IMG/VR virus record: IMGVR_UViG_3300042396_000723
Coordinates: 32,185 to 96,184 of that record
DNA from: a virus
Reading direction: 5' to 3' (one strand)
DNA: 64,000 nt
Shown here: positions 1 through 64,000 of the stretch, one piece after another
Layout: every line of letters begins with the position of its first letter
Numbering within the stretch: the stretch's first letter is position 1
Position numbers and translations under genes: made by a program
Notes under the pieces: model-generated
Seen by the model: the letters and a program-made list of their open reading frames with translations, nothing else
Told to the model about the DNA's origin: nothing
The model's database searches: none

Positions 1-29
1 TAACTCCTATTATAGTACAAATCAAACCC

Positions 30-497
30 TCAATATCTCCGCCTTAAATATTCTGCCAATAATAACGCCTCTGCCCTCCCGTGATGTTTTTCGAGTTTAA
101 GATTGTTAGTTTCACCTGGAAACATCTGCAACGCCATCACCCTTGACGCTTTCTTATCTTTTCCTATTAGGCTGTAGTGCTTTTTCCATGCCTGGGGAGT
201 AACAAACTCCATCGGGATTCCTAGCGTTGCAATAATCCCAAGCCAAATCCCAAAACCCATCCCAAAGTTAAAAGTAGAAGATACCCCTTGCTTGGGCATT
301 GCATGAACATTCTCAATAATTAGGTGAGTATTGATGGTGATCATTTCCTTCAGTCCAGATGCCATTAATGTCGGGTTGGGGCGTATCTTTCCACTAATCT
401 TAATCACTGGACAGTCGAGAAATTTAACCTCACCATTAGAAATCCTACACACTGCCCCCGTCGCTCCGGGGTCAATTCCGATAAATGTTTTAGTCAT
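30..497 (-). CDS. RuvC-like Holliday junction resolvase (phage type)
   Basis: 155 aa ORF with N-terminal FIGIDPGATGA motif typical of RuvC/RNase H-fold resolvases; last gene of the minus-strand early block. Confidence 0.6.
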   Translation of the reverse strand: MTKTFIGIDPGATGAVCRISNGEVKFLDCPVIKISGKIRPNPTLMASGLKEMITINTHLIIENVHAMPKQGVSSTFNFGMGFGIWLGIIATLGIPMEFVTPQAWKKHYSLIGKDKKASRVMALQMFPGETNNLKLEKHHGRAEALLLAEYLRRRY

Positions 498-810
498 TAT
501 CCGTTGTTGTTTGTAAATAGTTGATAACAGATGGGCTATAGTCAGATATTAAAATTCTTTCAATTGCCCAAGAGAAGTTGTATTTATCAATTTTTTCACC
601 AAGTCTTCTGCTTAGAATTTTAAATATTATTCTGATTTTATCGCCAATATAAGCAGATCCATAATTTAGATTTTTGGCAATCTCAGGATAAGTATTGTCG
701 TTTAATATTCCCTCGAGAATCTTTCTAGTCAAGCTATCAAGATGTTTTCCGGTCTCGGAAAATACCAAACTATCAACCAACCAGATATATTCTAACTGTT
801 CCCTAGTCAC
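490..810 (-). CDS. hypothetical protein, possible HTH DNA-binding protein
   Basis: 106 aa ORF in operon context; central segment LTRKILEGILNDNTYPEIAKNL resembles a helix-turn-helix. Assignment by eye only. Confidence 0.35.
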   Translation of the reverse strand: MTREQLEYIWLVDSLVFSETGKHLDSLTRKILEGILNDNTYPEIAKNLNYGSAYIGDKIRIIFKILSRRLGEKIDKYNFSWAIERILISDYSPSVINYLQTTTDND

Positions 811-1135
811 CTATAAAATCTCCCTCCGCATGGTAGATCCCATTATGAATTTTAAAACCTTCAATATTCTCGGTTTCAATATCCGAAAAACTTACCCGTT
901 CACTAACCATCCAGATTAGTAATTTTTCTAAAGTGTCAAAAGCTGGAAGGTGTGGCAGTTCAAGCCTTAATCTATCGGGTGTTCCAAAAGCACCTTTAAA
1001 GTGAGTGCTGAATTTAAAGATAGAATAATGGCGATCGCTTACCCCTCTTGATATTTTTTCCACTTCATCGAGTAGGCATCCTAAGTTTTCCATCCTAAGT
1101 TTTCCATCCTTTCTTAGCACTGTTGGCATCCGCAA
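803..1135 (-). CDS. hypothetical protein
   Basis: 110 aa ORF in co-oriented gene string; true start may be the internal Met near 1093 because the upstream ORF ends at 1095. Confidence 0.3.
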   Translation of the reverse strand: MRMPTVLRKDGKLRMENLGCLLDEVEKISRGVSDRHYSIFKFSTHFKGAFGTPDRLRLELPHLPAFDTLEKLLIWMVSERVSFSDIETENIEGFKIHNGIYHAEGDFIGD

Positions 1136-1370
1136 AAGCTATATGATCTCGCGTTATTTGCCACTCGTAACGAGGTCTTAGTCCCTCTCCAATCCTAACA
1201 CAATCCGAGTCTGTATCAGTCAGAGGAGTCACACCATTCTGATATTTGAACAGGGTCTTAGTCACCCAATTGACATCGGTTAATAATTGATTCCCGCCGC
1301 GTTTTCTGGCAGTGGTAACAACTAACTCGGCAATCTCTGGATAATTTGATTTAACTTTTGACTTTTTCAT
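1095..1370 (-). CDS. hypothetical protein
   Basis: 91 aa ORF tightly packed between neighbours on the same strand. Confidence 0.3.
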   Translation of the reverse strand: MKKSKVKSNYPEIAELVVTTARKRGGNQLLTDVNWVTKTLFKYQNGVTPLTDTDSDCVRIGEGLRPRYEWQITRDHIAFADANSAKKGWKT

Positions 1371-3729: not shown

Positions 3730-4080
3730 TTATTTTCCCCCCATATCTTGCTTGCCTATTTGTTCTGATTTATCGTTTTTGGGAACGTCAAGGTTGTAGC
3801 GCGATCGCAAGCCACCTAATTTAAACTCGCCACTAAATAGGTTTTTAGCTGTCTCTTTCTTTTCGGGTTTAGTGGAATCGGAAGATTTTTTATCATCGGT
3901 TTTGGGTTCTTCTTTAGGTTTTGCCCAGTCCTCCTTGGGTATCTGCCTAGTTATTTCTGGGATGGTTTTTACCGTTTCGGCTACACCCTTTTTAAACCAC
4001 CAAGGGATTGACTGATTCCAACAAAAGTAAATCAGAAATACCCAACCCAGAACAGATCCAAAATAGAATAAAACTCTCAT
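3730..4080 (-). CDS. membrane protein, Lys/Glu-rich tail (possible lysis accessory)
   Basis: 116 aa; N-terminal hydrophobic helix (VLFYFGSVLGWVFLIYF) then charged region; sits between M23 peptidase and another small TM ORF. Confidence 0.4.
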   Translation of the reverse strand: MRVLFYFGSVLGWVFLIYFCWNQSIPWWFKKGVAETVKTIPEITRQIPKEDWAKPKEEPKTDDKKSSDSTKPEKKETAKNLFSGEFKLGGLRSRYNLDVPKNDKSEQIGKQDMGGK

Positions 4081-10106: not shown

Positions 10107-10388
10107 TCAATCATGTTTCCTCCTGTGTTTTTTGGGGTTTAGCGATCGCAAATAATCTGCAATCGCTCGGCAATGGTTTGGATCATTAACATCTTCATGA
10201 CACTGAATCCAATGTTTAATCAGTGTCAAATTGTAGCCATACCCCGCCCGATTCCCCCCAGGGCGTTTGTAATAATGAATATTTTCGATCCATTTTTTGT
10301 GAGAGTGTTTAACGGAATCGGGATTTTTTAATCCCAGGAGTTTGACCGCTTCATGTTTGGAGCCAAATTCGTAGGCTGTGGCAATCAT
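10107..10388 (-). CDS. hypothetical protein
   Basis: 93 aa ORF; its start overlaps the stop of the upstream gene (10385-10388). Confidence 0.3.
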   Translation of the reverse strand: MIATAYEFGSKHEAVKLLGLKNPDSVKHSHKKWIENIHYYKRPGGNRAGYGYNLTLIKHWIQCHEDVNDPNHCRAIADYLRSLNPKKHRRKHD

Positions 10389-10783: not shown

Positions 10784-11077
10784 CTATCTAGTAAAACTGA
10801 TTTGAGCATCCCAGAGGGTTTGAAGCCACTGGTTTTGCGTGGGCATTAAGTGTTGATTTTTTTCTCTTAACGGATGCGGGAACATCCTCCGAGCTAGTTT
10901 AGATGCTGCGATCGCATCTTTTTTAGAATGAAAATACCCAGGGAAACGTCGCCCTGATGCCAAGTGAGTAACCCCCCAGTAATCGTCGTCAATCCGATGT
11001 ACAGCGATCCACTTTCTGATAGTTGCCTTTACTTTCCATCGCCCATAAATAGTATGGGTTACAATCGTTTTTCTCAT
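10784..11077 (-). CDS. hypothetical protein
   Basis: 97 aa ORF; 4-nt overlap with the upstream ORF at 11074-11077. Confidence 0.3.
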   Translation of the reverse strand: MRKTIVTHTIYGRWKVKATIRKWIAVHRIDDDYWGVTHLASGRRFPGYFHSKKDAIAASKLARRMFPHPLREKNQHLMPTQNQWLQTLWDAQISFTR

Positions 11078-12195: not shown

Positions 12196-12405
12196 CTAGC
12201 GAGTGCGATCGCGCCCCGCTTGTTGACCATCTTCATAACACCCTTGATCAAGGTGTGCTATTACTTCATCCCCTTTCAGGAGCCACCATTTCCGGTGATA
12301 AGGGACAGAACCCGTAGCGGTTCCCCAGAGTTCAACGCCTTCGGGCATCGCGTAATAATCTTTGTCGTAATTTGAAGCCACCCGTCTAATTTCTGATGCG
12401 TTCAT
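12196..12405 (-). CDS. hypothetical small protein
   Basis: 69 aa ORF. Confidence 0.3.
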   Translation of the reverse strand: MNASEIRRVASNYDKDYYAMPEGVELWGTATGSVPYHRKWWLLKGDEVIAHLDQGCYEDGQQAGRDRTR

Positions 12406-15446: not shown

Positions 15447-15725
15447 ATGAAGATTTCAATTTCAGAAGAATTGGATGACATTGGAATGTCCGCCGAAGCA
15501 TTCCGAGTCTATTTTGCGATCGTTTGCCATATTGCAAATCACGAGACGTTTCCAACGGTTGATCAAATCACGTCAAAATGTTTTTCCAGACGACGCGCGT
15601 CTGGAAAAACGCAGACAAGGCTTGCGTTGCGCGAGCTAATTAAGCTCGGTTTAATTAGCGGTGATATCGAAACGGAAAACTATACCTTAGTTCATCCCAG
15701 TAAGTGGGAAGTGGGGGCTGTATGA
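15447..15725 (+). CDS. winged-helix DNA-binding protein, first gene of replication operon
   Basis: 92 aa; FRVYFAIVCHIANHETFPTVDQITSKC...RLALRELIKLGLI resembles a winged helix; its stop overlaps the next ATG (ATGA at 15722-15725). Confidence 0.45.
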   Translation: MKISISEELDDIGMSAEAFRVYFAIVCHIANHETFPTVDQITSKCFSRRRASGKTQTRLALRELIKLGLISGDIETENYTLVHPSKWEVGAV

Positions 15726-16897
15726 AACCATCTATTCTAGCCGCCTTTGCAGAAGCCGTCCCCTATATCCCCGGACTCAGACAGCAAACAGGGAGCGTAG
15801 TAGCCACGATTCTTATGATGCAACTTGAGTATCGTTTCGCAAAGTATCCAGACGGGTTTTATAAGTTTTTAGAACCCCCTCAAAACGGACATCAGGACTA
15901 CAGGCTTGGGGATAGTTGGGTTGAGGAACTCGCTTTTTCTAAAGAAGAATTTAGGACTGGGTTTGACAAGATTGGAGTCCGTTACAACTCCAAAACCCAG
16001 TATGACGAAGCAAAATCTAGCGGATCGGAATTTGGTTGTAATTACTACTGTTCTTACGTTGACCGGAGGTCGGGGTTAACTTTCTACTTTCGGAATCACA
16101 GCAAGGTAGATGAGCTAATTTCCGATATCGAACCCAGGCAAAAATCAGTGGGTTTTCGCCCACGGAAAACTAGACCCCAAATGGTAGATCCCAATCTACA
16201 GGAAATCGGGAATCCCAATTTACTGAATATGGTAAATCCCAATTTACCATCATCGGGAATCCCAATTTACCAGAGTGGTGAATCCCAATTTCCTATTCCT
16301 TATATAGATATTTCAGAAAAGACTTCAGAAAAGACTCCAGAAAATACCCCCCTTACCCCCCAAGGGGAATCGGAGGAGGGGGGGATTCAGAACGAAGCCG
16401 TTTTGATTTCAAACGAAGACCAGGGGAAAGAGCTTACCGAGGACTCTGCTACACAGCAAAGTCAAAAAGAGAATCACCGACCTGAACAAAATCTTAATCC
16501 GGTGATCAGACATTCCGCCGCCGTCGAGTCCGATCCTCGATTTCTACCAACGGACGCAACAGCAGACAATATGAAAACTTGGAACGCAATTGTGGCGACC
16601 GGAGCCATGAGAGGTGAGCGATCGCCCGACCCTGAGTTTTTGGAATATTACAGGGGGCTATTAAGCAAATGCACTCATTACAGGGGCAAAGACTGTAATT
16701 CAAACCATGCCAAATCTTCCCTTGCTCAGAAATGGAAATCCGAGCCACTAAAAATCCTTGCCGATGCCGAGTCGTGGTTGAAATCAAAAGCCAAGTTTAG
16801 CGGTGGCAAATCAACCCAGACCCGCAATATCAGCGAACTTTCTAGGGATGAACGCCTCGCCATCCTGAGAGCCAAACGCGAACAAAAAGGAGCCTAA
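15722..16897 (+). CDS. putative replication initiation protein with origin repeats embedded in a low-complexity linker
   Basis: Sits directly upstream of the DnaB helicase; the central linker (PNLQEIGNPNLLNMVNPNL...) is encoded by iteron-like direct repeats, the arrangement known for lambda O and its ori. Confidence 0.45.
   Translation: MKPSILAAFAEAVPYIPGLRQQTGSVVATILMMQLEYRFAKYPDGFYKFLEPPQNGHQDYRLGDSWVEELAFSKEEFRTGFDKIGVRYNSKTQYDEAKSSGSEFGCNYYCSYVDRRSGLTFYFRNHSKVDELISDIEPRQKSVGFRPRKTRPQMVDPNLQEIGNPNLLNMVNPNLPSSGIPIYQSGESQFPIPYIDISEKTSEKTPENTPLTPQGESEEGGIQNEAVLISNEDQGKELTEDSATQQSQKENHRPEQNLNPVIRHSAAVESDPRFLPTDATADNMKTWNAIVATGAMRGERSPDPEFLEYYRGLLSKCTHYRGKDCNSNHAKSSLAQKWKSEPLKILADAESWLKSKAKFSGGKSTQTRNISELSRDERLAILRAKREQKGA
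16188..16347. repeat. iteron array plus AT-rich tract and 12-bp tandem repeats (candidate origin of replication)
   Basis: Five direct repeats of (G)AATCCCAATTTAC starting at 16188, 16211, 16235, 16258 and 16281 (23-24 bp spacing), then TTATATAGATA and three copies of TTCAGAAAAGAC-like 12-mers at 16312-16347. Confidence 0.55.
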
Positions 16898-17487: not shown

Positions 17488-18803
17488 TGGAAACAATAAT
17501 CATGCAAAACGTTGAGGCAGAACAAGCCGTTTTGGGAGCGATTCTCTTAGACCCCGAAGCTATGGGGCGAGTTGCGGAAACGCTAACTGCTAAATCTTTT
17601 TCCCTGCGATCGCATCAAACAATCTACAAAGCAGCTTTAGCATTACATTCCGAGGGAATAACCACGGATTTAATGACCGTCACTACCTGGTTATCCGATC
17701 AGAAATTACTTGAAAAAGCCGGGGGACAATTAGGATTAACCCAATTATTAGACCGCACAGTTTCAGCAGTTAACATTGATCAATACGGGCTGTTAATTGC
17801 CGATAAGCAAACTCGAAGAAACCTAATTGAATCTGCCCATAAAATTATTGAATTGGCAGAAGATACCAGTCAACCTTTAGAGACAATTCTCCAAAAGTCA
17901 GAGGAACAAATTGCTAATATTTCCCAATCAAAATCACAACAGGATTTAGTTTCGATTGGTGAAACTTTAATTGATACCTTTCAAGAAATTGAAGACCGGA
18001 GCGAAAGCAAGATTCCCCCCGGTGTCCCCTCTGGATTTTATGACCTCGATGCTATGACTGGAGGATTCCAACACACCGACTTAATTATTGTGGCAGGAAG
18101 ACCTGCAATGGGCAAATCGAGTTTGGCTTTAAATTTTGGATATAACATTGCCAAAAAAGGGCTACCCGTCGCGGTCTTCAGTTTAGAAATGTCTAAAGGT
18201 CAATTAGTCCAAAGACTATTATCGAGCGAAACCAAAATTGAAAGTACCCGCATTCGTTCAGGAAACATTCAGCAAGAGGAATGGGAACCTTTGACAACCG
18301 CAATTAGTTCCTTAGCAGAATTACCGATTTATATTGACGACACCTCGAATATTACCATCACCGAAATGCGTTCTGAAGCTCGAAGATTGCAAGCCGATAA
18401 CGATGGAAAGTTAGGCTTAATTCTAATAGATTATCTGCAATTAATGGACGGAGGAAGTGATAATCGGGTGCAAGAATTGTCAAGAATTACACGGGGATTA
18501 AAGGGAATGGCAAAAGATTTAAACGTTCCTGTAGTTGTCCTGTCTCAGTTGAGTCGTAGCGTCGAACAGCGCACCAATAAACGCCCAATGCTTTCAGACT
18601 TGAGAGAATCGGGCTCAATTGAACAAGACGCGGACTTAGTAATGATGATCTATCGAGATGATTATTATAATCCCAACACTTCGGACGCGGGAATAGCTGA
18701 ATTAATTTTAGCTAAACATCGCAACGGCCCCACCGGAACAGTAAAGCTATTGTTCGATTCTCAATTTACCCAATTTAAAAATTTAGTACGGGGGATGAAC
18801 TAA
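17487..18803 (+). CDS. dnaB: replicative DNA helicase DnaB
   Basis: 438 aa; Walker A GRPAMGKSSLALN, Walker B LILIDYLQLM, and SQLSRSVEQR...SDLRESGSIEQDADLVMMIYRDDYY typical of DnaB-family hexameric helicases. Confidence 0.9.
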   Translation: METIIMQNVEAEQAVLGAILLDPEAMGRVAETLTAKSFSLRSHQTIYKAALALHSEGITTDLMTVTTWLSDQKLLEKAGGQLGLTQLLDRTVSAVNIDQYGLLIADKQTRRNLIESAHKIIELAEDTSQPLETILQKSEEQIANISQSKSQQDLVSIGETLIDTFQEIEDRSESKIPPGVPSGFYDLDAMTGGFQHTDLIIVAGRPAMGKSSLALNFGYNIAKKGLPVAVFSLEMSKGQLVQRLLSSETKIESTRIRSGNIQQEEWEPLTTAISSLAELPIYIDDTSNITITEMRSEARRLQADNDGKLGLILIDYLQLMDGGSDNRVQELSRITRGLKGMAKDLNVPVVVLSQLSRSVEQRTNKRPMLSDLRESGSIEQDADLVMMIYRDDYYNPNTSDAGIAELILAKHRNGPTGTVKLLFDSQFTQFKNLVRGMN

Positions 18804-21277: not shown

Positions 21278-21288
21278 CCTTTTAAAAA

Positions 21289-21330
21289 TACACAAATAAA
21301 CTTGTTTTTTTTGCGTTATTTGTGTATAAT
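21289..21330 (+). promoter_or_regulatory. 11-bp perfect inverted repeat overlapping a -10-like TATAAT
   Basis: TACACAAATAA (21289-21299), a 16-nt T-rich spacer, then TTATTTGTGTA (21316-21326) running into TGTGTATAAT (TATAAT at 21325-21330). Could act as an operator/promoter or as a terminator hairpin. Confidence 0.3.
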
Positions 21331-21597: not shown

Positions 21598-21798
21598 ATG
21601 GTAAGACCCCACGAACACAGGCAAGAAATCAAAGCCAGACTCAAACCAGAAGATAGGGAGAAGTTGAAAGCCCTCGTCGTTGGCATGGGTTATCGTTATT
21701 GGAGGCAGGAGTCACCGGAACCCGCATGGACTGAGTTTTTGGAGGCGATCGCAACGGGCGATATAATTCTTTACAAAAAAGTCGGGGGAGGGGGTTGA
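21598..21798 (+). CDS. hypothetical small protein
   Basis: 66 aa ORF after a ~320 bp intergenic region. Confidence 0.3.
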   Translation: MVRPHEHRQEIKARLKPEDREKLKALVVGMGYRYWRQESPEPAWTEFLEAIATGDIILYKKVGGGG

Positions 21799-21859
21799 CC
21801 TTTTGGGATAAGTGGGGTACAGTTATAAATGTAGAAGGTTGAAATAAAGGAACAAGACG

Positions 21860-22934: not shown

Positions 22935-22938
22935 CTGT

Positions 22939-34169: not shown

Positions 34170-34376
34170 TTATCCTTGAATTACTTGCCATTTACCATTG
34201 TGTTTAAAGGCGATCGCATTCCCTGTAACCACACCTTTAGCTACAAAACTTTTACCCATCCCAGAGAATACAGATCCACTATTCCCCAGAGGGTAAGCCT
34301 TGCCAATTAACACTGATTTGTTAAGAGCGTTTAATCGACTTAAAGCCTGAGATGCGATTTGATTTACCGTCGCCAT
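34170..34376 (-). CDS. hypothetical small protein
   Basis: 68 aa ORF between two large structural genes. Confidence 0.25.
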   Translation of the reverse strand: MATVNQIASQALSRLNALNKSVLIGKAYPLGNSGSVFSGMGKSFVAKGVVTGNAIAFKHNGKWQVIQG

Positions 34377-45596: not shown

Positions 45597-45672
45597 GCTC
45601 CGCCAACAGAAATCCAGGCGAAATTAGCGATCGCCAAAGTACATCTCAATATTGGTAGAAGTGAACTTAATT
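45597..45672 (+). pseudogene. decayed remnant of the family N-domain start
   Basis: One frame reads APPTEIQAKLAIAKVHLNIGRSELN then stop, matching the paralog N-domain opening (APTExQMKLxIAQxLSM...) but truncated. Confidence 0.35.
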
Positions 45673-48900: not shown

Positions 48901-49282
48901 TTATTCGTTAATGAGTAGTGGAAATACCCCTACTGGCTATCGAATAGTTGATGGTGGCGAAGTTTTAAAGGTTAATGTCAAGAATGTTAAAACCCGCGTT
49001 AGAGGCGAATACATGGGGAAACCCTACGAGAACGAGCCGTCTCTCGCTCTTGATAAAGTTACCCACGTCATCCGAGATGGTAAACGTTACAAGGTAGATG
49101 ATTCTGATAGATCCCCCAATGACTTAAAGTCGGAATCCTCCAAATCCCAGAAAGCAGTAAAACAAAAGGCAGTAAAACAGAAAGCAATAAAAGTTCAAGG
49201 GGAGCGATCGCAAAAACAAGAATCCCCTCTAATTCCGAAAGAGGAAATAGTTAAAGATGCTCCAATACTGATGTTAAGGTAA
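45998..49282 (+). CDS. modular family member B: N-domain, 4-Cys linker, long Lys/Glu-rich helical C-terminal region
   Basis: 1094 aa; N-domain and KPKCGNTSYNCGKACIGLNKNCKSDPPD shared with paralogs; C-terminal region has internal repeats (SAGDKGAGGKTFD / SVGVDGAGGKSVD; QKAVKQKAVKQKAIK). Confidence 0.5.
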   Translation: MVTTLNRQNPRRLDAAPTEVQMKLGISQVLSMPFAYNSPVIVLDFEVGNKNIIKGRFKDAIRSRVFEFEIGDSITFKPFTWRRTDSDVDPMAWEDFSKGYCYRFDAVKTVRKEKPKCGNTSYNCGKACIGLNKNCKSDPPDKPSQEKVDKLRAAAGEFKAVQGDPTKKQEDNKLTPKPQEVKEVAPTPSPDKAEVPVTDLAKQPPVALKIGKKSVNLKDDLDSYKDLRITADPVLGWQVINKNGNVLREPPKGNTAPSHRFKKREQAEKFANDVMTRVEKLQKAQPKPDADVSDSDKRSFESLYTTKLSSAQQLLNLEKNAKIARISPSEDQKNYDKKQPDLNIDSGPGIMEGWRTAKPDGSVQGIPWSVKAEGQEKSRAIVGARLTDHPASPNLKRLRLYDADGRNETIDFKKGDRNASLRARRLVREIAQGKSQEMESGDIKALIEGGKEGLAKRKVEKARLAAEDKQFKAALDDYLKSKNLTRESIKGLTDIGMDDLIEKVEKYQKSRSQTPNSAGDKGAGGKTFDLNDLWRQTADAAYSKNKDGVSKNLEQWKEVVKKLESGEGISKDVNLNEYEKLMDNLEKKLVLDPKDPSNVEFKKITGSISKILSKAGSLNPLTQEDLEKAHPNFRPIMQRINKTVAKDYELFDKKERVQKELNSLKQEKSYNEAVILNNSKRFREIGINNNEVEIQRLSKKKPSDSVEVRNPVSNLPERTISASKRIKELQDEIGELNNSEKAKIEEDRARKEIARLQSPMKDAESRINAILDEKKKLRESRGGSSSQSEPKQTPNSVGVDGAGGKSVDQQYKDIIAKSKDPKGTEEVLSSALRGGFGDFERKNYNEYSTAIKSGTVPKGMGNYYQKQVDKYKPIIEAEDFINERKKKAISGDYETEQEAGVYVLNKLKQKGYKEHEYYDSPDYEKDYGKLVGVMKSVKLPPPLSGIVPGKELKQTLTPGDKLLVKEDTYSLMSSGNTPTGYRIVDGGEVLKVNVKNVKTRVRGEYMGKPYENEPSLALDKVTHVIRDGKRYKVDDSDRSPNDLKSESSKSQKAVKQKAVKQKAIKVQGERSQKQESPLIPKEEIVKDAPILMLR

Positions 49283-49457: not shown

Positions 49458-50186
49458 ATGACTAATTTATCATTATTACCTGACGATATTCGTTCTGAAT
49501 TTTCCGTTAACGATCAAGGTCAGGCTTTTGCGAGTAGACGGGCGATCGCACGGTTGGCAGGCGTTTCTCATGTGTCCATCGGGAATCTATTGGATAAAAT
49601 CGCTGTTAACCTAGACCTCCCCGAAAGCATTGAAATCCTTGGAGGGCAGGACTTTGAGGGTGTTAACCTGATCCCTGATACCGTTGCCTCCCGGATTATT
49701 GAGTATTACGCTTTTGATGCTAAACGTTATTGCACAGAACAAGCCAAGCGAGTTTATAAAGCATTCGGGGCTATCGGGTTTCGGTCGTGGGTACAAACTG
49801 AATTAGGTTGGCAATATTCACAACCTAAGTTACCTCAGACTTATGCTGAGGCATTACTGGAGGCGGGACGGTTAGCGTTAGAAGTGGAGAAGTTGGAAGC
49901 CGAGAAAACATTGCTTGAGCAAGAGAATGGCGAACTCTCCAAAAATTTAGATGAGTTATTTGATTATTCCTCTATTGTTCGGATTGCCAAGTTTAACCAA
50001 ATCTCAGAGAAAATCTTTAACTGGCGGTTACTCAAGGCATTGAGTCTTAAAATGGGGTTAGAAATTAAAAAAGTCCCGTGTCCCAGGTTTGAGACAAAAA
50101 GCCTATATTCTCACGATGTCTGGCGTGTTGCTTATCCTGAAATGAAGCTACCAGAAACGACAACGCTAGTTATTAACAGAGGATAA
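49458..50186 (+). CDS. antirepressor-like protein, paralogous in its C-domain to the Rha-family gene at 26576-27265
   Basis: C-terminus PQTYAEALLEAGRLALEVEKLEAEK...YSHDVWRVAYPEMKLPETTTL is near-identical in pattern to 26576-27265; the N-terminal domain is different. Confidence 0.5.
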   Translation: MTNLSLLPDDIRSEFSVNDQGQAFASRRAIARLAGVSHVSIGNLLDKIAVNLDLPESIEILGGQDFEGVNLIPDTVASRIIEYYAFDAKRYCTEQAKRVYKAFGAIGFRSWVQTELGWQYSQPKLPQTYAEALLEAGRLALEVEKLEAEKTLLEQENGELSKNLDELFDYSSIVRIAKFNQISEKIFNWRLLKALSLKMGLEIKKVPCPRFETKSLYSHDVWRVAYPEMKLPETTTLVINRG

Positions 50187-50262: not shown

Positions 50263-50682
50263 ATGCTATCCCTAAGATTTAACGCCAATCAAGTCCGAAA
50301 TTATCTAAATAAATTAATTAAAAAGTTTCAGAATCTTAACCCCGAACTGCATAAAGTTGGGCAGTTTATGGTGGCATCAACCGATGAGAACTTCCAAAAG
50401 GAACAGAGTCCTTATGGGGAGAAATGGGAACACTTAGCACCATCAACCCTCAAATACAAGGCAAGTCGGGGTTTTATTATGCAAATATTACAACGCCAAG
50501 GATTGTTGCGATCTTCTATTCGGTATCGGATTGAAAAAGGAAGGGTTGAGGTAGGGAGTCCATTGCCCTATGCCTCCTATTTACAAGAAGGCACTAAGAA
50601 AATGCCTAAACGTCAATTTTTAGGAGTAAGTCAACGCGATCGCAGGGAGATTATCGCTATTCTAAAGGATTCTCTTCGTTGA
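50263..50682 (+). CDS. virion morphogenesis protein candidate (Mu G-like)
   Basis: 139 aa; C-terminal LPYASYLQEGTKKMPKRQFLG resembles the Mu gpG-type signature; located in the head module. Confidence 0.4.
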   Translation: MLSLRFNANQVRNYLNKLIKKFQNLNPELHKVGQFMVASTDENFQKEQSPYGEKWEHLAPSTLKYKASRGFIMQILQRQGLLRSSIRYRIEKGRVEVGSPLPYASYLQEGTKKMPKRQFLGVSQRDRREIIAILKDSLR

Positions 50683-51160: not shown

Positions 51161-52675
51161 ATGGTTGAAATCAGGCTTGATGCTCCAGCTAAATTTAGGG
51201 TAATCAGAACTGATGATGGTCGCCTCCATTGTGAGGGGTCTTTTTGTCGTGATGGGGTGTTGGAATATCGTCAGCCTGATGGCTCCATAGTCCACGAACT
51301 CAGGAGACCGGAAACCAATGCAGAACTAGCCACAGTGGAGAGTTTTAAGCTCCTCCCCCTGGTAATTGAACATCCCCATGTTGGGCTTCTTAATAGCGAA
51401 AGTTATAAGGATTACGCAGTCGGGATGACTGATTCTTCTGCTTATTACAACAAGGCTGAAGGGGTGATCGAAGGCTTGGTGTCGTTTTTTGATGCTAAAG
51501 CGATCGCCCTAATTGATTCAAGGGAAAAGGAACAGTTGTCTGCGGGATATACCTGCGATATCAAACAAGGGGCAGGGGTATGGAATGGTCAACACTACGA
51601 CAGAGAACAGATTAATGTTCGTGCTAACCATTTGGCTTTAACGAGCCGAGGAAGGGCAGGAGAAGATGCCCGTCTCCGATTAGATAGTGCTGCGGGGATT
51701 GGGCAAGCTGTTGCAGGGCAAGCTGTTGAAAACCCTAGTAACCCCAACAAAACCAAAGATAATGGAGATAATGAACAGCGCATGGCAATAATTAGATGCG
51801 ATGGAGTCGAATATTCAGGAATCCCTGAAGTTTTCGCTTCTATTAGTGGTACTCGATTCCGTGAATTAAAAGAATTAAAGGAACGCCACGATTCGCTTGT
51901 TACACGGTTTGACGCTACGATTCGGGAGAATCGGAAGCTAGAAGCCGCACAAGAGAACTACCAGTTTCGGTTGGATAACCTGGAAATCATTGTGGACAAT
52001 GCTGACAATGTCCTTGGTGAATTAGGTTATTACCGGAACGACATGGGGCAATACGTCCGTGTTGATGGGGGCAAAAAGAAAATGATGTCTCTTGTTCCCG
52101 AAGATGAAGAAATGATGGAAGATGAGGACAATGAAGATGAAGAAATGATGGAAGATGAGGTTATGGAAGAAAAAGAAACCATGACTTCCAGAAAGAAAAA
52201 AAAGTCCAAACCTCGTGCTGATGGCGACGATGAAGGCGAGAGTGATTACCGGGGTGATTCAATCGGGGATCTGTTGGCGATTTGGAAGGAAGCCGACAGT
52301 TTGTTACCAGGGTTCTCTGACACTCGGTTTGATAGTGGCTTCTCCACTAGCGATATCAAGCGCACTTTGTTGGCTGAAATCGAACCCAATATGGATTTGA
52401 CGTTCCGATCCGATTCTTATGTAGACGGGGTTTTTGCCTACATTCAGGAGAATTATGATTCCTCCCCCACCGATCCAGGTGACGAAGAAGAAGGGGATGA
52501 CGAGGAGGAAGACGATGGAGACTCGGAGGAGTTTTCCCATCGCCTTGATTCGGTACTCAAAAGACCTGCTCAATCTACCTACGGAGATGAACTCACCGAA
52601 TGGGAAAGACGACGGGTAGATGCCTATAAGCAGCCTTTAACGATAGGAAAAACACGCACGGGGTTTACTAGATAA
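51161..52675 (+). CDS. capsid scaffolding / head maturation protein candidate
   Basis: 504 aa; acidic low-complexity C-terminal half (MMEDEDNEDEEMMEDEVMEE, DEEEGDDEEEDDGD) typical of scaffolding proteins; lies immediately upstream of capsid-like genes. Confidence 0.4.
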   Translation: MVEIRLDAPAKFRVIRTDDGRLHCEGSFCRDGVLEYRQPDGSIVHELRRPETNAELATVESFKLLPLVIEHPHVGLLNSESYKDYAVGMTDSSAYYNKAEGVIEGLVSFFDAKAIALIDSREKEQLSAGYTCDIKQGAGVWNGQHYDREQINVRANHLALTSRGRAGEDARLRLDSAAGIGQAVAGQAVENPSNPNKTKDNGDNEQRMAIIRCDGVEYSGIPEVFASISGTRFRELKELKERHDSLVTRFDATIRENRKLEAAQENYQFRLDNLEIIVDNADNVLGELGYYRNDMGQYVRVDGGKKKMMSLVPEDEEMMEDEDNEDEEMMEDEVMEEKETMTSRKKKKSKPRADGDDEGESDYRGDSIGDLLAIWKEADSLLPGFSDTRFDSGFSTSDIKRTLLAEIEPNMDLTFRSDSYVDGVFAYIQENYDSSPTDPGDEEEGDDEEEDDGDSEEFSHRLDSVLKRPAQSTYGDELTEWERRRVDAYKQPLTIGKTRTGFTR

Positions 52676-57466: not shown

Positions 57467-59332
57467 ATGATCATAGAGACTAAATCAGCCCCAACAAAAG
57501 CTCAAATGCAAGCAGCGATCGCCCAGACTCTTGCTCTTCCTTTTGCCTATAACTCCCCAGTGGATGTGATGGACTTTAAGGTAGATGGCACGGGTAAAAT
57601 ATCAGGGCGATTCAAGGATTCTGCCCGTCCAAGGGTGTTTGATTTTGAGTTAGATGGAAATACCGTCAACTTCAAACCTTACACGACAGGACGTATGGAT
57701 TCGGACGATGCAGTGGAACAATGGGAGGAGTTCTCGTCAGGGTATTCCTATCGTTTTGATGCTAAGGCAAAAGCCAAGGCGAAAAGCAAGACAGGAGACT
57801 CCAAGAAACCCCAATGCGTTAAACCCACAGCATATAATTGCGGAAAAGCCTGTATAAATATTAATAATAATTGTAAATCCAACCCCGACGATGCTAACTC
57901 AAAGGATCGTTTAGAAAAACTGAAAGCTGCTGGTATTGATTACGCTAAAGAAACTAAGAAATCCACTCCTAAATCTACCGCAAAAACCAAGAAAGAGGTA
58001 GAAAAACCACCGGAAATAGATAAAACCCCTAAAATAGATAAAACCCCTGAAAAGATAGAGGGAAAGGCTACCGAGTCCAAATCCCTTAATTTAGTAGGAA
58101 AAGGGGATCACGAGTCCGTCCCCAAAGATGCGAATGAATACTATGAAGCAATGAAAACATCGGGCAATCCTATCTCTTATGACGATGCCATAAAGATTAC
58201 CGGAGCCGTTAGAGAGTGGACGGAGGATGCTTCTTATATTAGGGAATCTCAAAAAGCAGGGAAATACAGCATTATTGCCGACCGGATTAATGATTACGTT
58301 AAAAGTTCAACGCCATTCAAGGGCGAAATTTATCGAGGCATCTCCTTCGGATCAACAGATGAGGCTTTGAGTTGGGCTAAGGGAGATAGTGATGGGATAT
58401 TAGATAATCAGAATGCCCATGCTTCTTGGACTTCTAACTGGGATAAAGCCAGAAAGTTTGCTGGTAACAATTCGGTAAACGACTTTACATCGCAACCTGT
58501 CATTATCAAAACAAATAATAAGTCGGGTGCCTCCATCAAAAACCTAAGCAACATTGGCACAGAAGATGAGGTAGTGGTTGTCAAAGACACTCGCCATCGG
58601 GTTAAGAATGTTGTATACGAAGATGGTGTTTTGATCGTTGAGACAGAAGAAGTTTCTCCAGATGAGGGAAAGAAAGCGCCTGAACCATCACCAGAAATAA
58701 CTAAACCCCAAAAAGAATCCGAGGAAAAGGCAGTTAAACAACCCGAAAATAAACCCAAAAACCTTAATTTAGTGGGCAAAGGCGATCATGAATCCATGCC
58801 ATCAAGCCACAAAGAGTATTATAAAGCACTGAAAAAAGCAGGGGTCAATATTTCTGAGAAGGAGGCAGCAGCCACCACTACAGCCATCTATAAATGGACG
58901 AGGAATGCTAACGACATCCGAGCCGATCAAAAGGCAGGAGAGGAGAACGAAGATGCAAATCGAATCTCTAATTATGTCAGGAACTCAACCCCATACAAAG
59001 GCGAAGTTTACCGAGGGATTCACTTTGAAACCAAAGAGGAGGCTTTAAACTGGACTAAAGGCGACAAGGATGGAGTGCTAGATAATCAAGGTGCTCACGC
59101 CTCTTGGTCATCTAGCCTTAAAACAGCAGAAGAATTTTCAGACGATTTCTTTATTGAGGAAAAAAGATATCCTGTTGTCATTAAATCAATCAACAAATCA
59201 GGTGCTTCTATTAAGAATTTAAGCAACATCAAAGAAGAAGACGAGGTTATGGTTTTAAAGGATACTCGCCATCGGGTTAAAAGTGTCAGGGAAGAAAACG
59301 GACGGATTATTGTTGAAGCTGAGGAAGTATAG
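57467..59332 (+). CDS. modular family member D: N-domain, 4-Cys linker, two tandem ADP-ribosyltransferase-like domains
   Basis: 621 aa; each duplicated C-terminal unit has INDYV / ISNYV, YRG (KGEIYRGISF / KGEVYRGIHF), an STS-like HASWTS / HASWSS, and ExE followed by hydrophobics (TEDEVVVV / EEDEVMVL), matching the R-S-E ART motif order. Confidence 0.55.
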   Translation: MIIETKSAPTKAQMQAAIAQTLALPFAYNSPVDVMDFKVDGTGKISGRFKDSARPRVFDFELDGNTVNFKPYTTGRMDSDDAVEQWEEFSSGYSYRFDAKAKAKAKSKTGDSKKPQCVKPTAYNCGKACININNNCKSNPDDANSKDRLEKLKAAGIDYAKETKKSTPKSTAKTKKEVEKPPEIDKTPKIDKTPEKIEGKATESKSLNLVGKGDHESVPKDANEYYEAMKTSGNPISYDDAIKITGAVREWTEDASYIRESQKAGKYSIIADRINDYVKSSTPFKGEIYRGISFGSTDEALSWAKGDSDGILDNQNAHASWTSNWDKARKFAGNNSVNDFTSQPVIIKTNNKSGASIKNLSNIGTEDEVVVVKDTRHRVKNVVYEDGVLIVETEEVSPDEGKKAPEPSPEITKPQKESEEKAVKQPENKPKNLNLVGKGDHESMPSSHKEYYKALKKAGVNISEKEAAATTTAIYKWTRNANDIRADQKAGEENEDANRISNYVRNSTPYKGEVYRGIHFETKEEALNWTKGDKDGVLDNQGAHASWSSSLKTAEEFSDDFFIEEKRYPVVIKSINKSGASIKNLSNIKEEDEVMVLKDTRHRVKSVREENGRIIVEAEEV

Positions 59333-59343: not shown

Positions 59344-59436
59344 ATGAGTTTAACGACTAGAAAAGATGCCATGCTAACGGAATCTCAGATGAAGTTGGCG
59401 ATCGCCCAGACTCTTGCCCTTCCTTTTATGTTCTGA
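59344..59436 (+). pseudogene. truncated N-domain remnant upstream of family member E
   Basis: Reads MSLTTRKDAMLTESQMKLAIAQTLALPFMF then stop; identical in pattern to the opening of members D and G but ends after ~30 codons, indicating a deletion of the rest of the N-domain. Confidence 0.4.
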
Positions 59437-59437
59437 A

Positions 59438-60532
59438 ATGAAAAAACCCCAATGCGTAAAGCCAACATCATATAACTGCGGAGCGGCTTGTATCAACGTT
59501 TCCAAATCTTGCCAACAAGTCCCTTCTGAATCTTTTGGGCGATCGCGTCTTCAGAAGTTAAAACAAATTGCTTCTATTTATGCGAAGCAAAACACAGCAA
59601 AATCTCAAAGACAAGGGGCTACGGCTAACAAGATCATAGGATCAATTGAAGAAAAAAGGAAAACTGAAGCGACATCTTTGGCACAAGACAGAAAAGTTAT
59701 TAACCAAGACCGTAGAAAAGCTAGGTTAAAAGCCGAAGCAAAAGCCAAGAGAGAGCAACTATTAAAGATGTATGAAGATGTTAGTAAAACGTCAACATCA
59801 AAAGGCAATGTCCCCAAACTTTTGAATACAGAAGCTCCTGACAGGGAGCTAACAAGGTTAAAAAATAAGTACGAAAAGCAATCGGTTGAAACGGCAAAGA
59901 CCAACCTACAAAAAGCCGAGAGAGCGCTAAGTAGTGCGCTTAAAACTATAGGGGAGATGAAACAGGAGTCTGATAAATTCCTAGAAGAAACCCGAAAACT
60001 GGTACAGGTAGACAAACCTACTAAATTAAACTCATCGGTCAAAACCGGAACCCCTAACGCCCATAAAAAAGGTGTTGAGGCGTTCCAAAAAATGATCTCA
60101 ATTCCAGGCTTGGACACTCCAGTTAGTATTGTGGAAACCCCTCCAGAAAGGAAGGGGAGAAGTTGCTACAAACCCAAGACAAATAATGTATTCATGGGTA
60201 ATTCCGACCCTGCCGTTGTAGTTCATGAGATGAGTCACTGGCTAGAGGAGAAAGTACCAGGAATCAGAGAGGAAGTTCAGGAGTTTTATAATAAGAGAAC
60301 CCAAGGCGAGAAAAATATTAAACTAAGTGAAGTTACTGGCAATAAAAACTATGGGGATAGAGAGGTTACAAAGGTTGATAAATGGTTAAATCCTTACATG
60401 GGCAAGGAATACAAAAACGCCTCTGAAATCCTTTCTATGGGAATGGAAATAATGTACCGCAACCCTGCTTATTTAGCCAAGAATGACCCCGAAATGTTCG
60501 ACTTTATTTATAGTGTTGTGAGGAGAGGATGA
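59438..60532 (+). CDS. modular family member E: 4-Cys linker plus HExxH domain, N-domain deleted
   Basis: Starts at ATG 59438 (MKKPQCVKPTSYNCGAACINVSKSC...); C-terminal VVVHEMSHWLE ... SMGMEIMYRNPAYLAKNDPEMFDFIYSVVRRG shared with F and G. Confidence 0.5.
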   Translation: MKKPQCVKPTSYNCGAACINVSKSCQQVPSESFGRSRLQKLKQIASIYAKQNTAKSQRQGATANKIIGSIEEKRKTEATSLAQDRKVINQDRRKARLKAEAKAKREQLLKMYEDVSKTSTSKGNVPKLLNTEAPDRELTRLKNKYEKQSVETAKTNLQKAERALSSALKTIGEMKQESDKFLEETRKLVQVDKPTKLNSSVKTGTPNAHKKGVEAFQKMISIPGLDTPVSIVETPPERKGRSCYKPKTNNVFMGNSDPAVVVHEMSHWLEEKVPGIREEVQEFYNKRTQGEKNIKLSEVTGNKNYGDREVTKVDKWLNPYMGKEYKNASEILSMGMEIMYRNPAYLAKNDPEMFDFIYSVVRRG

Positions 60533-61669: not shown

Positions 61670-61945
61670 ATGGCTTATCGCGTTAAAATCAATGGTGTAG
61701 TGGCAATTGTTGAAAATGGCGTTTGGTCATCCTCAACACCCCATTATGCCGAAATTCTAAATAACGTCTTGGCAATGGAGAAATTGGCAGCCATAGACCC
61801 TGATTCGCCTTTTTTCTGGCTTAATTCCCCTGCAACACCCGACCCAGATTGGTTAATTGCCACCGAAATAGCCAAAACCTTTGAGGGGACGGTGATGGAT
61901 CAACCGATTACTCCTCTGACAACAGACGAAGATATTATTTATTAA
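61670..61945 (+). CDS. hypothetical small protein following an HExxH-domain gene
   Basis: 91 aa ORF starting 2 nt after the F stop; possible accessory or immunity-type partner (speculative). Confidence 0.3.
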   Translation: MAYRVKINGVVAIVENGVWSSSTPHYAEILNNVLAMEKLAAIDPDSPFFWLNSPATPDPDWLIATEIAKTFEGTVMDQPITPLTTDEDIIY

Positions 61946-61949
61946 TGCG

Positions 61950-63401
61950 ATGAAGTTCAATCCAAATGCTACGGTTTCCGAGACTCAAATGAAGTTAGCG
62001 ATCGCTCAAACGTTATCGCTCCCATTTGCCTATAATTCGCCCGTGATGGTGTTGGATTTTGATTTAGGGGATAAGGATAGTAACAAGATAACAGGGCGAT
62101 TCAAAGACTTATCCCGTCCCCGCGTGTTCAGTTTTGAGATAACCAAGAAGTCAGTTGTCTATAAACCCTTCGTGGCTCGAACTGATAGCACGGAATTGGA
62201 TGCTAAATCGTGGGAAGATTTCTCGAAAGGTTACTCTTATCGAGTTGATAGTCAAGGCTTGAGAAAGGAAAAAGCTCAATGTGTCAAGCCGACTTCTTAT
62301 AACTGTGGGAGTATTTGTATTAATATTAAGAAAAACTGTAAGGCTAATGCTGATGATGACTTTTCGGAAGAACGGATTGACAAGCTATTTAAGTTAAGAA
62401 GATATTATACAGACAAATTATTGGAAATAAATCCAAGTACACAAAGAGAAGAAGAGACTCTCCTTGAAGAAAAAGTCCGAGAAGTCTCTCGACTACTTAA
62501 ACCATACAATGATCGTCAAAAAGAGCTAGAGAAACAAAAACAGGAGCAAATCAAAGAACAAAGAAGCCGTCAAATAGAAGTATTGAAGTCCGAAGCTCAA
62601 TCGAAAAGAACGCAATTAATGGCATTGTCAAATGAATTAGATAGCAATCAAAAAATATCTTCTGATGCAAGAATTAAGGCATCAGTTCACCTTGAATTCG
62701 ATGATCCAGAAAGCGGAATAAAAAGGGATCTTAAATTTGCTGAAAGTGTTGCTCTAAAACTGAATAAAAATGGACAAAAAGAAGCCGAGATATTCTCCCA
62801 AAATGAGTTAAAAATTGCCATAGAAGCAAAAAAAGAAATTGATAATATTTTAGACAAAGCTCGTGAGTTGATAAAGGTTGAGAAACCAGTTGATATTGGT
62901 GTAGCGTTTGATTCTAAGAATGTAAGAAAACCAGATGAATATAAGAAAGGGCTTGAGATGTTTTCTGAAATGATTTCGGTTCCCAATTTAAAAGAAACAT
63001 TAGAAGTTAAAGAGACAGATTCGGGAAGAAGTTATTACAAACAGGGAGCTATACACATGGCAAATCCAGATCCGGCGACAATCATCCACGAATCAGGGCA
63101 TTGGCTAGAGGCTCGGAATATTCAGGTAAGGAGAGAAGTTAAAGAATTTTATAATAAAAGGACAGAAGGAGAGCCTATTGTCAAATTGAGCGAATCAACG
63201 GGTGATCTCTATGAAGACTATGAAGTTACCAAGGTCGATAAATGGCTTCATCATTACATAGGGAAGTTTTATGGAAACCAGCCTAGTTCCGAGGTTCTGT
63301 CAATGGGATTAGAGATGATGTATAAAAACCCCATTTACTTAGCCAAAAACGATCCCGAAATGTTTGATTTTATCTATTCTGTAGTTAGGCAAGGGAATTG
63401 A
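61950..63401 (+). CDS. modular family member G: N-domain, 4-Cys linker, coiled-coil, HExxH domain
   Basis: 483 aa; KLAIAQTLSLPFAYNSPVMVLDF...GRFKDLSRPRVFSFEI; AQCVKPTSYNCGSICINIKKNCKANADD; C-terminal IIHESGHWLE ... SMGLEMMYKNPIYLAKNDPEMFDFIYSVVRQG. Confidence 0.5.
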   Translation: MKFNPNATVSETQMKLAIAQTLSLPFAYNSPVMVLDFDLGDKDSNKITGRFKDLSRPRVFSFEITKKSVVYKPFVARTDSTELDAKSWEDFSKGYSYRVDSQGLRKEKAQCVKPTSYNCGSICINIKKNCKANADDDFSEERIDKLFKLRRYYTDKLLEINPSTQREEETLLEEKVREVSRLLKPYNDRQKELEKQKQEQIKEQRSRQIEVLKSEAQSKRTQLMALSNELDSNQKISSDARIKASVHLEFDDPESGIKRDLKFAESVALKLNKNGQKEAEIFSQNELKIAIEAKKEIDNILDKARELIKVEKPVDIGVAFDSKNVRKPDEYKKGLEMFSEMISVPNLKETLEVKETDSGRSYYKQGAIHMANPDPATIIHESGHWLEARNIQVRREVKEFYNKRTEGEPIVKLSESTGDLYEDYEVTKVDKWLHHYIGKFYGNQPSSEVLSMGLEMMYKNPIYLAKNDPEMFDFIYSVVRQGN

Positions 63402-63474
63402 AGTTAATGGGTCAATCAAAGCAACAAAGCAAACGCTAAAATGTCTTCCTTGGAGAAAATATAGGAGGGTGGGA

Positions 63475-64000
63475 ATGCTAATAGATAAATCAACTGAAGA
63501 AGACTATCTCAATGGTCGTACTTTTGCTCAGGGTTATTTTTTGCGGATTGACGCAGCTAGAGCCGACGCAGCTAGAGCCACCCCAAAATGCAAGAATGGG
63601 GTTTCTTATAGCTGTGGGAAGTCCTGTATTAGCCTTAAGAAAAATTGCAAGTCAGAACCGCAAGATGAAAAAGGGAAACAAATTCTTAAGGCAGTAAAAT
63701 CCAAGGCTTCTGAGTTTGCTAAAACAAAAGCAAAAACACCCAAAGCTACTCCAGTTAAGCCTACTGAAATTAAGCCAGATGTAGAAGCTCCTCCCCCTCC
63801 CCAAGGTGATATAAAGGTTAAGGCATCTAAATCAAAAACCAAGGTATCAAAACCCGTCGCAGTGGAAGCAGAGAAAAAAGCGACTCCTGCCAAAACCAAA
63901 AAAGCAAAACCCTCAACAAAGCTTAGTGAAGTTAGCAAAGAGCAGAAGAAAGTGGAGGCGATCGCAAAACCATCCAAAACAATAGGAGATGGAACTCATG
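63475..64000 (+). CDS. modular family member H (partial, runs off window): truncated N-domain, 4-Cys linker, Lys-rich region
   Basis: ATG at 63475 preceded by AGGAGG; FAQGYFLRIDAARADAARATPKCKNGVSYSCGKSCISLKKNCKSEPQD; contains a 15-bp tandem duplication (GACGCAGCTAGAGCC x2); no stop before the window end. Confidence 0.45.
   Translation, partial: MLIDKSTEEDYLNGRTFAQGYFLRIDAARADAARATPKCKNGVSYSCGKSCISLKKNCKSEPQDEKGKQILKAVKSKASEFAKTKAKTPKATPVKPTEIKPDVEAPPPPQGDIKVKASKSKTKVSKPVAVEAEKKATPAKTKKAKPSTKLSEVSKEQKKVEAIAKPSKTIGDGTH

Follow-up and report, generated by a model that had tools for sequence, protein, structure and literature searches.

The DNA analysed here is a 64,000-nt stretch of the IMG/VR virus record IMGVR_UViG_3300042396_000723 (positions 32,185 to 96,184; hereafter the window), and its subject is the octamer GCGATCGC, or HIP1 (Highly Iterated Palindrome 1), reportedly described from cyanobacteria by Robinson in 1995. 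The map of open reading frames (ORFs) is phage-like with a coding density of approximately 93%, and scans against PHROG and Pfam identified the large terminase TerL, a portal protein and the helicase DnaB as well as an FtsK-like protein, a Rha-type regulator and a helix-turn-helix (HTH) regulator. Prohead protease and major capsid genes were assigned via homology to annotated genes of the Planktothrix agardhii phage PaV-LD, and neither tRNAs nor Rfam families were found in the window. An exact search located 24 copies of HIP1, 22 of them within ORFs, in line with the coding density, and two in intergenic positions (Table 1).

Table 1. Positions of the HIP1 sites and of further features in the window. 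L numbers denote single relatives; "junction" marks sites near homology-block junctions.
Feature	Position	Strand	Gene context	Remark
HIP1	1031..1038		ORF 803-1135(-)	frame x-Asp-Arg; no relative aligned; junction
HIP1	3801..3808		ORF 3730-4080(-)	frame Arg-Ser; homologous PaV-LD position is TTGACCGC
HIP1	10142..10149		ORF 10107-10388(-)	common to PaV-LD (92432)
HIP1	10908..10915		ORF 10784-11077(-)	frame Ala-Ile-Ala; kept in relative L022
HIP1	12205..12212		ORF 12196-12405(-)	junction
HIP1	16618..16625		replication-initiator homologue 15704-16897(+)	
HIP1	17606..17613		DnaB helicase gene 17487-18803(+)	common to PaV-LD (3778)
HIP1	21745..21752		small ORF 21641-21871(-)	common to PaV-LD (11734); junction
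HIP1	31729..31736		head-decoration-like gene 29751-31874(-)	intact in relative L013, local 8-mers 7% conserved; junction
HIP1	33068..33075		ORF 32416-34143(-)	kept in 13/13 aligned relatives
HIP1	34210..34217		ORF 34170-34376(-)	intact in 13/14 relatives; L019 has GAGATCGC
HIP1	38155..38162		TerL gene 38078-39682(-)	kept in 19/19 aligned relatives
HIP1	38776..38783		TerL gene 38078-39682(-)	intact in 15/16 relatives; L017 has GTGATCGC; junction
HIP1	40771..40778		ORF 40425-41198(-)	kept in 15/15 aligned relatives
HIP1	45627..45634		intergenic, between ORF end 45555 and ORF start 45724	kept in 8 relatives; junction
HIP1	49204..49211		near 3' end of minor-head-like gene 45998-49282(+), 1094 aa	junction
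HIP1	49542..49549		ORF 49458-50186(+)	window-specific region
HIP1	50636..50643		ORF 50263-50682(+)	HIP1 in PaV-LD; L011 and L012 have GGAATCGT
HIP1	51500..51507		prohead-protease homologue 51161-52675(+)	
HIP1	57515..57522		ORF 57467-59332(+)	common to PaV-LD (53703)
HIP1	59398..59405		intergenic, 16 nt 5' of ORF 59414-60532	common to PaV-LD (55590)
HIP1	59539..59546		ORF 59414-60532(+)	common to PaV-LD (55731)
HIP1	61998..62005		ORF 61950-63401(+)	common to PaV-LD (58207)
HIP1	63958..63965			PaV-LD counterpart is the one-transition variant GCGATTGC
CGATCG short of full HIP1, GCGATCGT	15516..15523			sole case in window
DnaB helicase	17487-18803	+		PHROG/Pfam scan
C5-cytosine DNA methyltransferase, 343 aa	19800-20831	+		PF00145 3e-54; TIGR00675 137.6 bits (cut-off 100.65)
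Rha-family regulator	26576-27265		mosaic accessory region	
Large terminase TerL	38078-39682	-		PHROG/Pfam scan
Portal	41814-43802			PHROG/Pfam scan
Mosaic accessory region	21263-22948, 24940-32195			
Hexamer repeat GCGATA/GCGATT	15281-15310		5' of replication genes, 3' of divergent HTH-regulator gene	approximately 4-5 copies
Inverted repeat GTTTTTCCAGACG/CGTCTGGAAAAAC	15580-15610		apparently inside small ORF homologous to PaV-LD ORF004R	13 nt, perfect
ACCGGAAA/TTTCCGGT	746, 3211, 3711, 5336, 6893, 20251, 39470, 51307, 58009			among 13 sites

The 24 copies stand against an expectation of 0.26 from 100 dinucleotide shuffles (shuffle maximum of 2), 0.32 from 300 dinucleotide-preserving shuffles and 0.46 from an order-3 Markov model, which is equivalent to a 52- to 92-fold enrichment. 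Among all 8-mers of the window, HIP1 has both the top z-score and the top raw frequency. Elhai 2012 (PMC3497702) speaks of HIP1 richness where the octamer is the most frequent 8-mer at no fewer than 180 per Mb; in the window it is the most frequent one at 0.375 per kb or 375 per Mb, with an observed/expected ratio (O/E) of 52. The original prediction, made from the letters alone, had put the number of copies at 23 or more, and each of its 13 example coordinates proved to be a real HIP1 site, 0 to 8 bases off the true start. Its claim of an excess over chance holds, and far above the five-fold enrichment that it had set as its own lower threshold, but the one copy or so that it expected by chance is more than the computed 0.26 to 0.46. 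The one-mismatch variants, which it had wanted counted as well, are as a class not enriched (13 vs 8.6 expected for the 24 variants pooled, 300 shuffles). Furthermore, GATC occurs near expectation (231 vs 243), and 24 of the 25 CGATCG hexamers in the window are embedded in HIP1. Outside HIP1, CGATCG is thus found once vs 7.2 expected, a number equally low in only 1 of 300 shuffles.

With megablast and blastn, the window was found to be collinear with PaV-LD (HQ683709 / NC_016564; complete linear record of 95,299 bp; host P. agardhii HAB637), running from approximately 83.6 kb to the end of that record and from its start to approximately 59.6 kb. Collinear blocks of 75-97% identity cover 46.9 of the 64 kb. 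By its sequence, the window is approximately 64 kb of a PaV-LD-like Planktothrix cyanophage from a lake metagenome, and would represent about two-thirds of the genome if that genome has the size of PaV-LD (95 kb). A tblastn search of DnaB against phages returned PaV-LD as the only isolated close relative, and IMG/VR holds 18 contigs with a TerL that is 87-100% identical, as well as two further contigs retrieved via an exact pattern; of these two, IMGVR_UViG_3300042882_001391 is identical to the window (100%) across 10.8 kb. PaV-LD-like contigs in IMG/VR reach lengths of 50-98 kb. Its collinearity with a phage of P. agardhii marks the window as mobile DNA of a cyanobacterium rich in HIP1, just as had been predicted. 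Based on this kinship, a composition identical to that of P. agardhii plasmids, and the published CRISPR spacers that tie PaV-LD-like contigs to P. agardhii (PMC10343443), we infer Planktothrix as the host.

Could the window instead be host chromosome, i.e., an integrated prophage with the HIP1 content of long-resident DNA? Long residence would account for the full host-like composition, and the integrase and ParB-like protein of PaV-LD make a temperate or episomal phase conceivable. However, all 64 kb are collinear with the genome of the PaV-LD isolate, even across the record ends, the window holds no flanking host-type genes, tRNAs or rRNAs, and the integrase region of PaV-LD is not part of it. 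In addition, the relatives stem from viral contig collections, and a genome scan with the C5-methyltransferase of the window gave close matches only on two short contigs within non-cyanobacterial metagenome-assembled genomes (MAGs) from Lake Mendota. An integrated prophage is thus a very improbable source of the HIP1 content.

HIP1 richness is a trait of the PaV-LD-like lineage and not of the window alone. PaV-LD itself carries 46 copies in 95.3 kb (0.48 per kb; 0.44 expected; O/E 63), and its CGATCG hexamers lie within HIP1 in 46 of 48 cases, leaving 2 outside vs 10.1 expected. For the IMG/VR relatives, 118 HIP1 copies were counted in 262 kb, and these contain 118 of the 119 CGATCG hexamers.

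With regards to the origin of the sites, their distribution over the genes is informative. All three reading frames are used (10/3/9 sites in frames 0/1/2; Ala-Ile-Ala ten times, Arg-Ser nine times and Asp-Arg three times), and the genes concerned are unrelated to each other, including TerL with two sites, DnaB, the homologues of replication initiator and prohead protease, and head proteins. The flanking sequences are diverse, and the density is equal in the 46.9 kb aligned to PaV-LD (18 sites) and in the 17.1 kb unaligned (6 sites). Wherever homologous positions differ among relatives, the difference consists of one to several substitutions, never of an indel. Scattered frames, diverse flanks, equal density and substitution-only differences therefore identify the HIP1 sites as a DNA-level word made in place through point substitutions across the phage's own genes, and not as a repeat, a peptide or a trace of imported genes. 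A peptide motif is ruled out by the three frames and the unrelated genes, and membership in a longer repeat or in a mobile element by the diverse flanks and the absence of any difference other than substitutions. Regular spacing was not seen: the gaps have a coefficient of variation (CV) of 0.86 and those between randomly placed sites one of 0.95 (P = 0.32), within a 64-kb window that is too short for the periods of 10-90 kb described by Xu et al. (2018). An enrichment near gene ends was weak and inconsistent (P = 0.017 at 100 bp in the window, P = 0.15 in PaV-LD).

The same data bear on the idea that HIP1 came along with recently transferred host genes. The annotation of PaV-LD does include host-like genes such as nblA, thymidylate kinase and PAPS reductase, among others. 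However, the sites lie in phage hallmark genes (two in TerL, others in DnaB, the homologues of prohead protease and replication initiator, and genes resembling those for head-decoration and minor head proteins), conserved core and variable regions are equally dense, the host-like tmk gene has no HIP1, and the substitutions at homologous positions show an origin in place. An import of this kind is largely refuted, and we regard its probability as close to negligible. A homologue search with the thymidylate kinase returned no named host proteins.

Once made, the sites are retained. Sixteen of the 18 window sites with an aligned counterpart in PaV-LD are shared with it (13 expected, P ~0.05-0.07). 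For a broader test, 21 relatives were included, one relative (the most divergent one aligned) was evaluated per site, and the expectation was taken from the local 8-mer background. Here, HIP1 was intact in 19 of 22 cases vs 11.25 expected (P = 9e-5). Third-codon positions were changed in 4 of 49 cases (8%) inside HIP1 and in 529 of 2320 cases (23%) in the flanks (P = 0.007). Since the third-codon positions inside HIP1 change less than those of the flanks, the constraint on HIP1 acts at the nucleotide level. Site conservation above background has likewise been reported for cyanobacterial chromosomes (Xu et al. 2018, PMC5861425).

Conservation of this kind, synonymous positions included, would also be expected if HIP1 were selected for a function in the phage, for instance as recombination hot spots for module exchange with co-infecting phages or host DNA, or as a methylated "self" mark with which the DNA passes host discrimination. 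Within 60 bp of the junctions between homology blocks of window and relatives, 7 HIP1 sites were found vs 2.5 expected (P = 0.011), i.e., the sites lie nearer to such junctions than random positions do. In work cited in a 2026 bioRxiv preprint and in PMC9239245, HIP1 reportedly raises the integration of incoming DNA in Synechococcus PCC 7002 in dependence on methylation by DmtC, and plasmid recombination is reportedly associated with HIP1; both fit a role in recombination. However, the junction signal is weak: four cut-offs were tried, of which two gave P ~0.01, the sites lie at distances of 10-60 bp from the junctions instead of directly on them, and a shared tendency of junctions and HIP1 to fall toward gene ends acts as a confounder. 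The random spacing and the existence of several successful freshwater cyanophages free of HIP1 also speak against a selected function, and a repair ratchet predicts the conservation equally well. A mark of recombination at mosaic junctions is therefore a weak hint, and selection for a HIP1 function in the phage seems unlikely, though less so than the other alternatives considered here.

For comparison with host DNA, 150 kb from plasmids 1 and 2 of P. agardhii NIES-204 were analyzed. HIP1 is the top octamer here as well, with 0.30 and 0.70 per kb and an O/E of approximately 57; density and O/E of the phage are thus at the level of host DNA, matching the comparison proposed in the original prediction. 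CGATCG is embedded in HIP1 in 65 of 95 cases in this plasmid sample. On plasmid 1, a single biosynthetic island of approximately 30 kb (37.8-67.9 kb; sulfotransferase, P450, glycosyltransferases and others) accounts for 23 of the 24 CGATCG hexamers that are not part of HIP1, and in the rest of the plasmid CGATCG is nearly always HIP1, as in the phage. This suggests that the island is recently acquired DNA on which the host HIP1 pattern has yet to be imposed.

A second host signature, independent of HIP1, is found in the words that are avoided. Restriction-type palindromes are subject to extreme avoidance: approximately 19 of those with six bases are missing, or all but missing, in the window, in PaV-LD and in the Planktothrix plasmids alike, including TCTAGA, CTGCAG, GGATCC, ACCGGT, TTCGAA, ACTAGT, GCTAGC, CTCGAG, ATGCAT, GACGTC, AGTACT, TCCGGA and GGTACC. 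The window counts are zero vs 10.5 expected for TCTAGA, 12.6 for GGATCC, 13.9 for TCCGGA and 8.1 for CTGCAG. Shorter words follow the same trend, as GGWCC is missing from the window (51 expected) and GGCC is reduced to an O/E of 0.13, both being avoided in PaV-LD and the host plasmids too. Across window, PaV-LD and NIES-204 plasmids, no palindrome was found that is avoided by the host yet tolerated by the phage.

The host's own HIP1-generating force acting on phage DNA, be it methyl-directed biased repair or selection, is in our view very probably the cause of the HIP1 content. While undergoing methylation and replication or repair in a HIP1-rich cyanobacterial cell, phage DNA would be exposed to the very force by which the sites of the host are created and maintained. 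In Synechocystis, the orphan methylases DmtC (m5C, CGATCG) and DmtA (m6A, GATC) have their targets within HIP1, as described in the 2026 bioRxiv preprint, and the model of Elhai 2015 (PMC4390886) describes a methyl-directed mismatch-repair ratchet from CGATCG via GCGATCG to GCGATCGC, after which the finished site is protected; this accounts for CGATCG not being over-represented outside HIP1. Applied to the phage, CGATCG would be methylated by DmtC and GATC by DmtA (both putative in Planktothrix), the ratchet would convert CGATCG stepwise into HIP1 and then shield it, and sites would accumulate to Planktothrix density and be held at the nucleotide level. Alternatively, direct selection for a HIP1-linked function would provide the force. 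What is seen in the phage corresponds to the finished stage of such a ratchet: CGATCG occurs almost only as HIP1, a general excess of one-off variants is missing, the density is at host level and the sites are stable. As CGATCG is depleted outside HIP1 and the one-off variants are not enriched, this is therefore the pattern predicted by the Elhai model, in which case host DmtC or the mismatch-repair machinery would be at work on phage DNA.

Within the one-mismatch variants, the pair GCGATTGC/GCAATCGC is in excess in the window (6 vs ~1 expected). An interpretation as decayed HIP1 was rejected, as two of the six are part of a (GCGATW)n hexamer repeat and only two cases align to a HIP1 of the other phage; nor is the excess shown by other HIP1-rich phages.

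As the window encodes a C5-methyltransferase (C5-MTase) of its own, the phage might also drive HIP1 autonomously: the enzyme would methylate CGATCG/HIP1 and, together with host repair, generate and keep the sites with no need for host DmtC. The enzyme is full-length and conserved in the PaV-LD lineage (approximately 35 protein clusters at no less than 75% identity), PaV-LD also encodes an N6-adenine MTase, and in the HIP1-rich Aphanizomenon phage CL131 a C5-MTase adjoins an N4/N6 MTase. Like host DmtC, it belongs to the C5 class; however, its target is predicted by neither structure nor palindromes, and it did not prove orthologous to the orphan DmtC/M.Ssp6803I-type enzyme of cyanobacterial chromosomes. 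Among solved structures, M.HaeIII with the target GGCC is its best full-length relative, and the CL131 enzyme aligns in the catalytic motifs only, leaving the target-recognition region unmatched. In the scan of reference genomes, no close cyanobacterial homologue was found (best full-length cyanobacterial match 34% identical), and no Planktothrix locus was among the matches. The closest relatives in the genome collection, JBIPMC010000388.1 (90%) and JBIPLY010000602.1 (84%), are contigs of 3-6 kb from Lake Mendota, binned in MAGs with the labels Terrimicrobiaceae and Acetobacteraceae; most likely, they are mis-binned fragments of PaV-LD-like phages. Finally, a relief of avoidance is not visible, as the phage tolerates none of the palindromes that the host avoids, and the search for a specificity in solved structures, the CL131 enzyme, genome homologues and phage-tolerated palindromes gave no informative match. 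The C5-MTase gene itself is free of HIP1. Judged from the sequence, nothing appears to tie the enzyme to HIP1, and a phage-autonomous origin is quite improbable.

Among other cyanophages, HIP1 is the top 8-mer in CL131 (70 copies in 50 kb) and in Nodularia phage 2AV2 (12 in 25 kb), and it is also strongly enriched in Nostoc phage A1 with 16 copies in 25 kb. In contrast, one copy was counted in 50 kb of Microcystis phage Ma-LMM01 and none in Anabaena podovirus A-4L (41.7 kb), the T7-like Pf-WMP3 (25 kb) or the marine S-PM2 serving as a control (50 kb). The presence of HIP1 thus indicates a cyanobacterial host, but its absence does not exclude one, because A-4L, Pf-WMP3 and Ma-LMM01 infect freshwater cyanobacteria and carry only 0-1 copies. 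A rule that derives HIP1 from copying by the host replisome, in phages lacking a DNA polymerase of their own, would fit the PaV-LD-like phages and CL131 (no catalytic polymerase) as well as A-4L and Pf-WMP3 (own polymerase, HIP1-free); it is contradicted by A1, which encodes PolB. Over its whole genome (1-41750), A-4L contains not a single GATC, CGATCG or HIP1. From its genome size and composition, more than 100 GATC would be estimated, and this total avoidance occurs although the host group of A-4L methylates GATC.

Several of these points weigh against a host force as the cause of the HIP1 content. The 0-1 copies in A-4L, Pf-WMP3 and Ma-LMM01 mean that replication in such a host is by itself insufficient (Microcystis is documented as HIP1-rich in Elhai 2015, PMC4390886), and with A1 as a PolB carrier the ownership of a polymerase fails to explain the split into HIP1-rich and HIP1-free phages. 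The host DNA compared is plasmid sequence of one strain in place of a chromosome, and the link to DmtC and mismatch repair would follow from one published model that is itself hypothetical. Moreover, conservation cannot separate biased repair from selection, because a ratchet that protects finished sites predicts conservation too, and Xu et al. 2018 (PMC5861425) read HIP1 conservation as selection and not as biased repair.

Compared to PaV-LD, the structural module of the window is 93-97% identical with the same gene order, and C5-MTase, DnaB and TerL are present in both. The left arm, however, is merely 75-94% identical. Missing from the window are the PaV-LD segment at 7.9-11.6 kb with the integrase and the greater part of that at 15-22 kb (toxin-antitoxin, ABC transporter, Ser/Thr kinase-phosphatase); its own inserts lie at approximately 10.5-15.0 kb and in parts of 24.9-32 kb. 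In the mosaic accessory region (Table 1), other small genes stand in place of these two PaV-LD segments. The DnaB of PaV-LD has 579 aa vs 438 aa in the window. The additional stretch of approximately 141 aa (424 bp; PaV-LD 4785-5209) corresponds to the junction 18613/18614 of the window and may be a mini-intein without a counterpart there. The short hexamer repeat and the perfect inverted repeat (Table 1) are possible operators or parts of an origin. Second in over-representation among the words of the window is ACCGGAAA/TTTCCGGT, which occurs 13 times vs 1.5 expected, 12 times in coding-sense orientation and in every frame; PaV-LD has 8 copies. The excess of this word may be a by-product, as CCGG is limited in its contexts where ACCGGT and TCCGGA are avoided.

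In practice, HIP1 enrichment together with the matching avoided palindromes offers a strong and cheap host signature for viral contigs from bloom metagenomes, and it flags the window correctly, though it works in one direction only, several cyanophages being HIP1-free. The origin of HIP1 has been debated for 30 years mainly between biased repair (Elhai 2015, PMC4390886) and a chromosomal function under selection (Xu 2018, PMC5861425), and phages are not mentioned in either of these studies. Full-text literature searches, whose coverage did not extend to Delaye et al. 2011, gave no study of HIP1 in cyanophage genomes, and the genome paper of CL131 likewise gave no full-text match to HIP1 or GCGATCGC. 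A phage lineage with conserved HIP1 at host level, beside HIP1-free cyanophages, could serve as a comparative system for this question. Tentatively, and with more doubt than confidence, the PaV-LD-like phages, CL131, 2AV2 and A1 might owe their HIP1 to a cell-wide DNA-processing force, such as methyl-directed repair or a function in self/non-self discrimination or recombination, that acts on any DNA residing in the cells long enough. Since a virus of approximately 95 kb has no use for a chromosome-scale organizing role, phages would therefore be a natural experiment on the origin of HIP1 if this holds, and the contrast with the HIP1-free A-4L, Pf-WMP3 and Ma-LMM01 could pinpoint the responsible step of DNA metabolism.

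The HIP1 motif, its cyanobacterial specificity and compositional mimicry between phage and host are well known, and the HIP1 enrichment of the phage in the window is a correct and largely expected host signature. Over-represented genomic words are also familiar from the CCWGG bias of very-short-patch repair in E. coli, the uptake sequences of Neisseria and Haemophilus, and Chi sites. In each of these systems, a short exact word reaches high copy numbers across coding DNA via repair bias or a DNA-processing function. Uptake signals and Chi have been raised as analogies to HIP1 (PMC3497702). However, for HIP1 all of these mechanisms are hypothetical, and the window shows no sign of uptake or RecBCD-type recognition. 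Close likeness exists to cyanobacterial HIP1 itself: the octamer is identical, ORFs contain it in every frame and it is also found between them, CGATCG shows no excess apart from it, and an O/E of 52-92 with 375 per Mb lies within the published ranges for HIP1-rich cyanobacteria (O/E 15-300; 300-2700 per Mb according to Elhai 2015, PMC4390886). In contrast to these, the carrier is a virus genome of approximately 95 kb and not a chromosome, and CGATCG is embedded in HIP1 more strictly (24/25) than in the host plasmid sample. The periodicity of 10-90 kb, proposed by Xu et al. 2018 (PMC5861425) as a functional clue in an analysis that excluded plasmids, cannot apply to the randomly spaced phage sites in the same way. 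As in the known mimicry of host DNA by phages, this phage has HIP1 as an over-represented word and a set of avoided words in common with the DNA of its host; the difference is that one extremely over-represented 8-mer is kept at synonymous sites, rather than a diffuse composition. Mimicry of host oligonucleotides and avoidance of restriction sites form the basis of k-mer host prediction.

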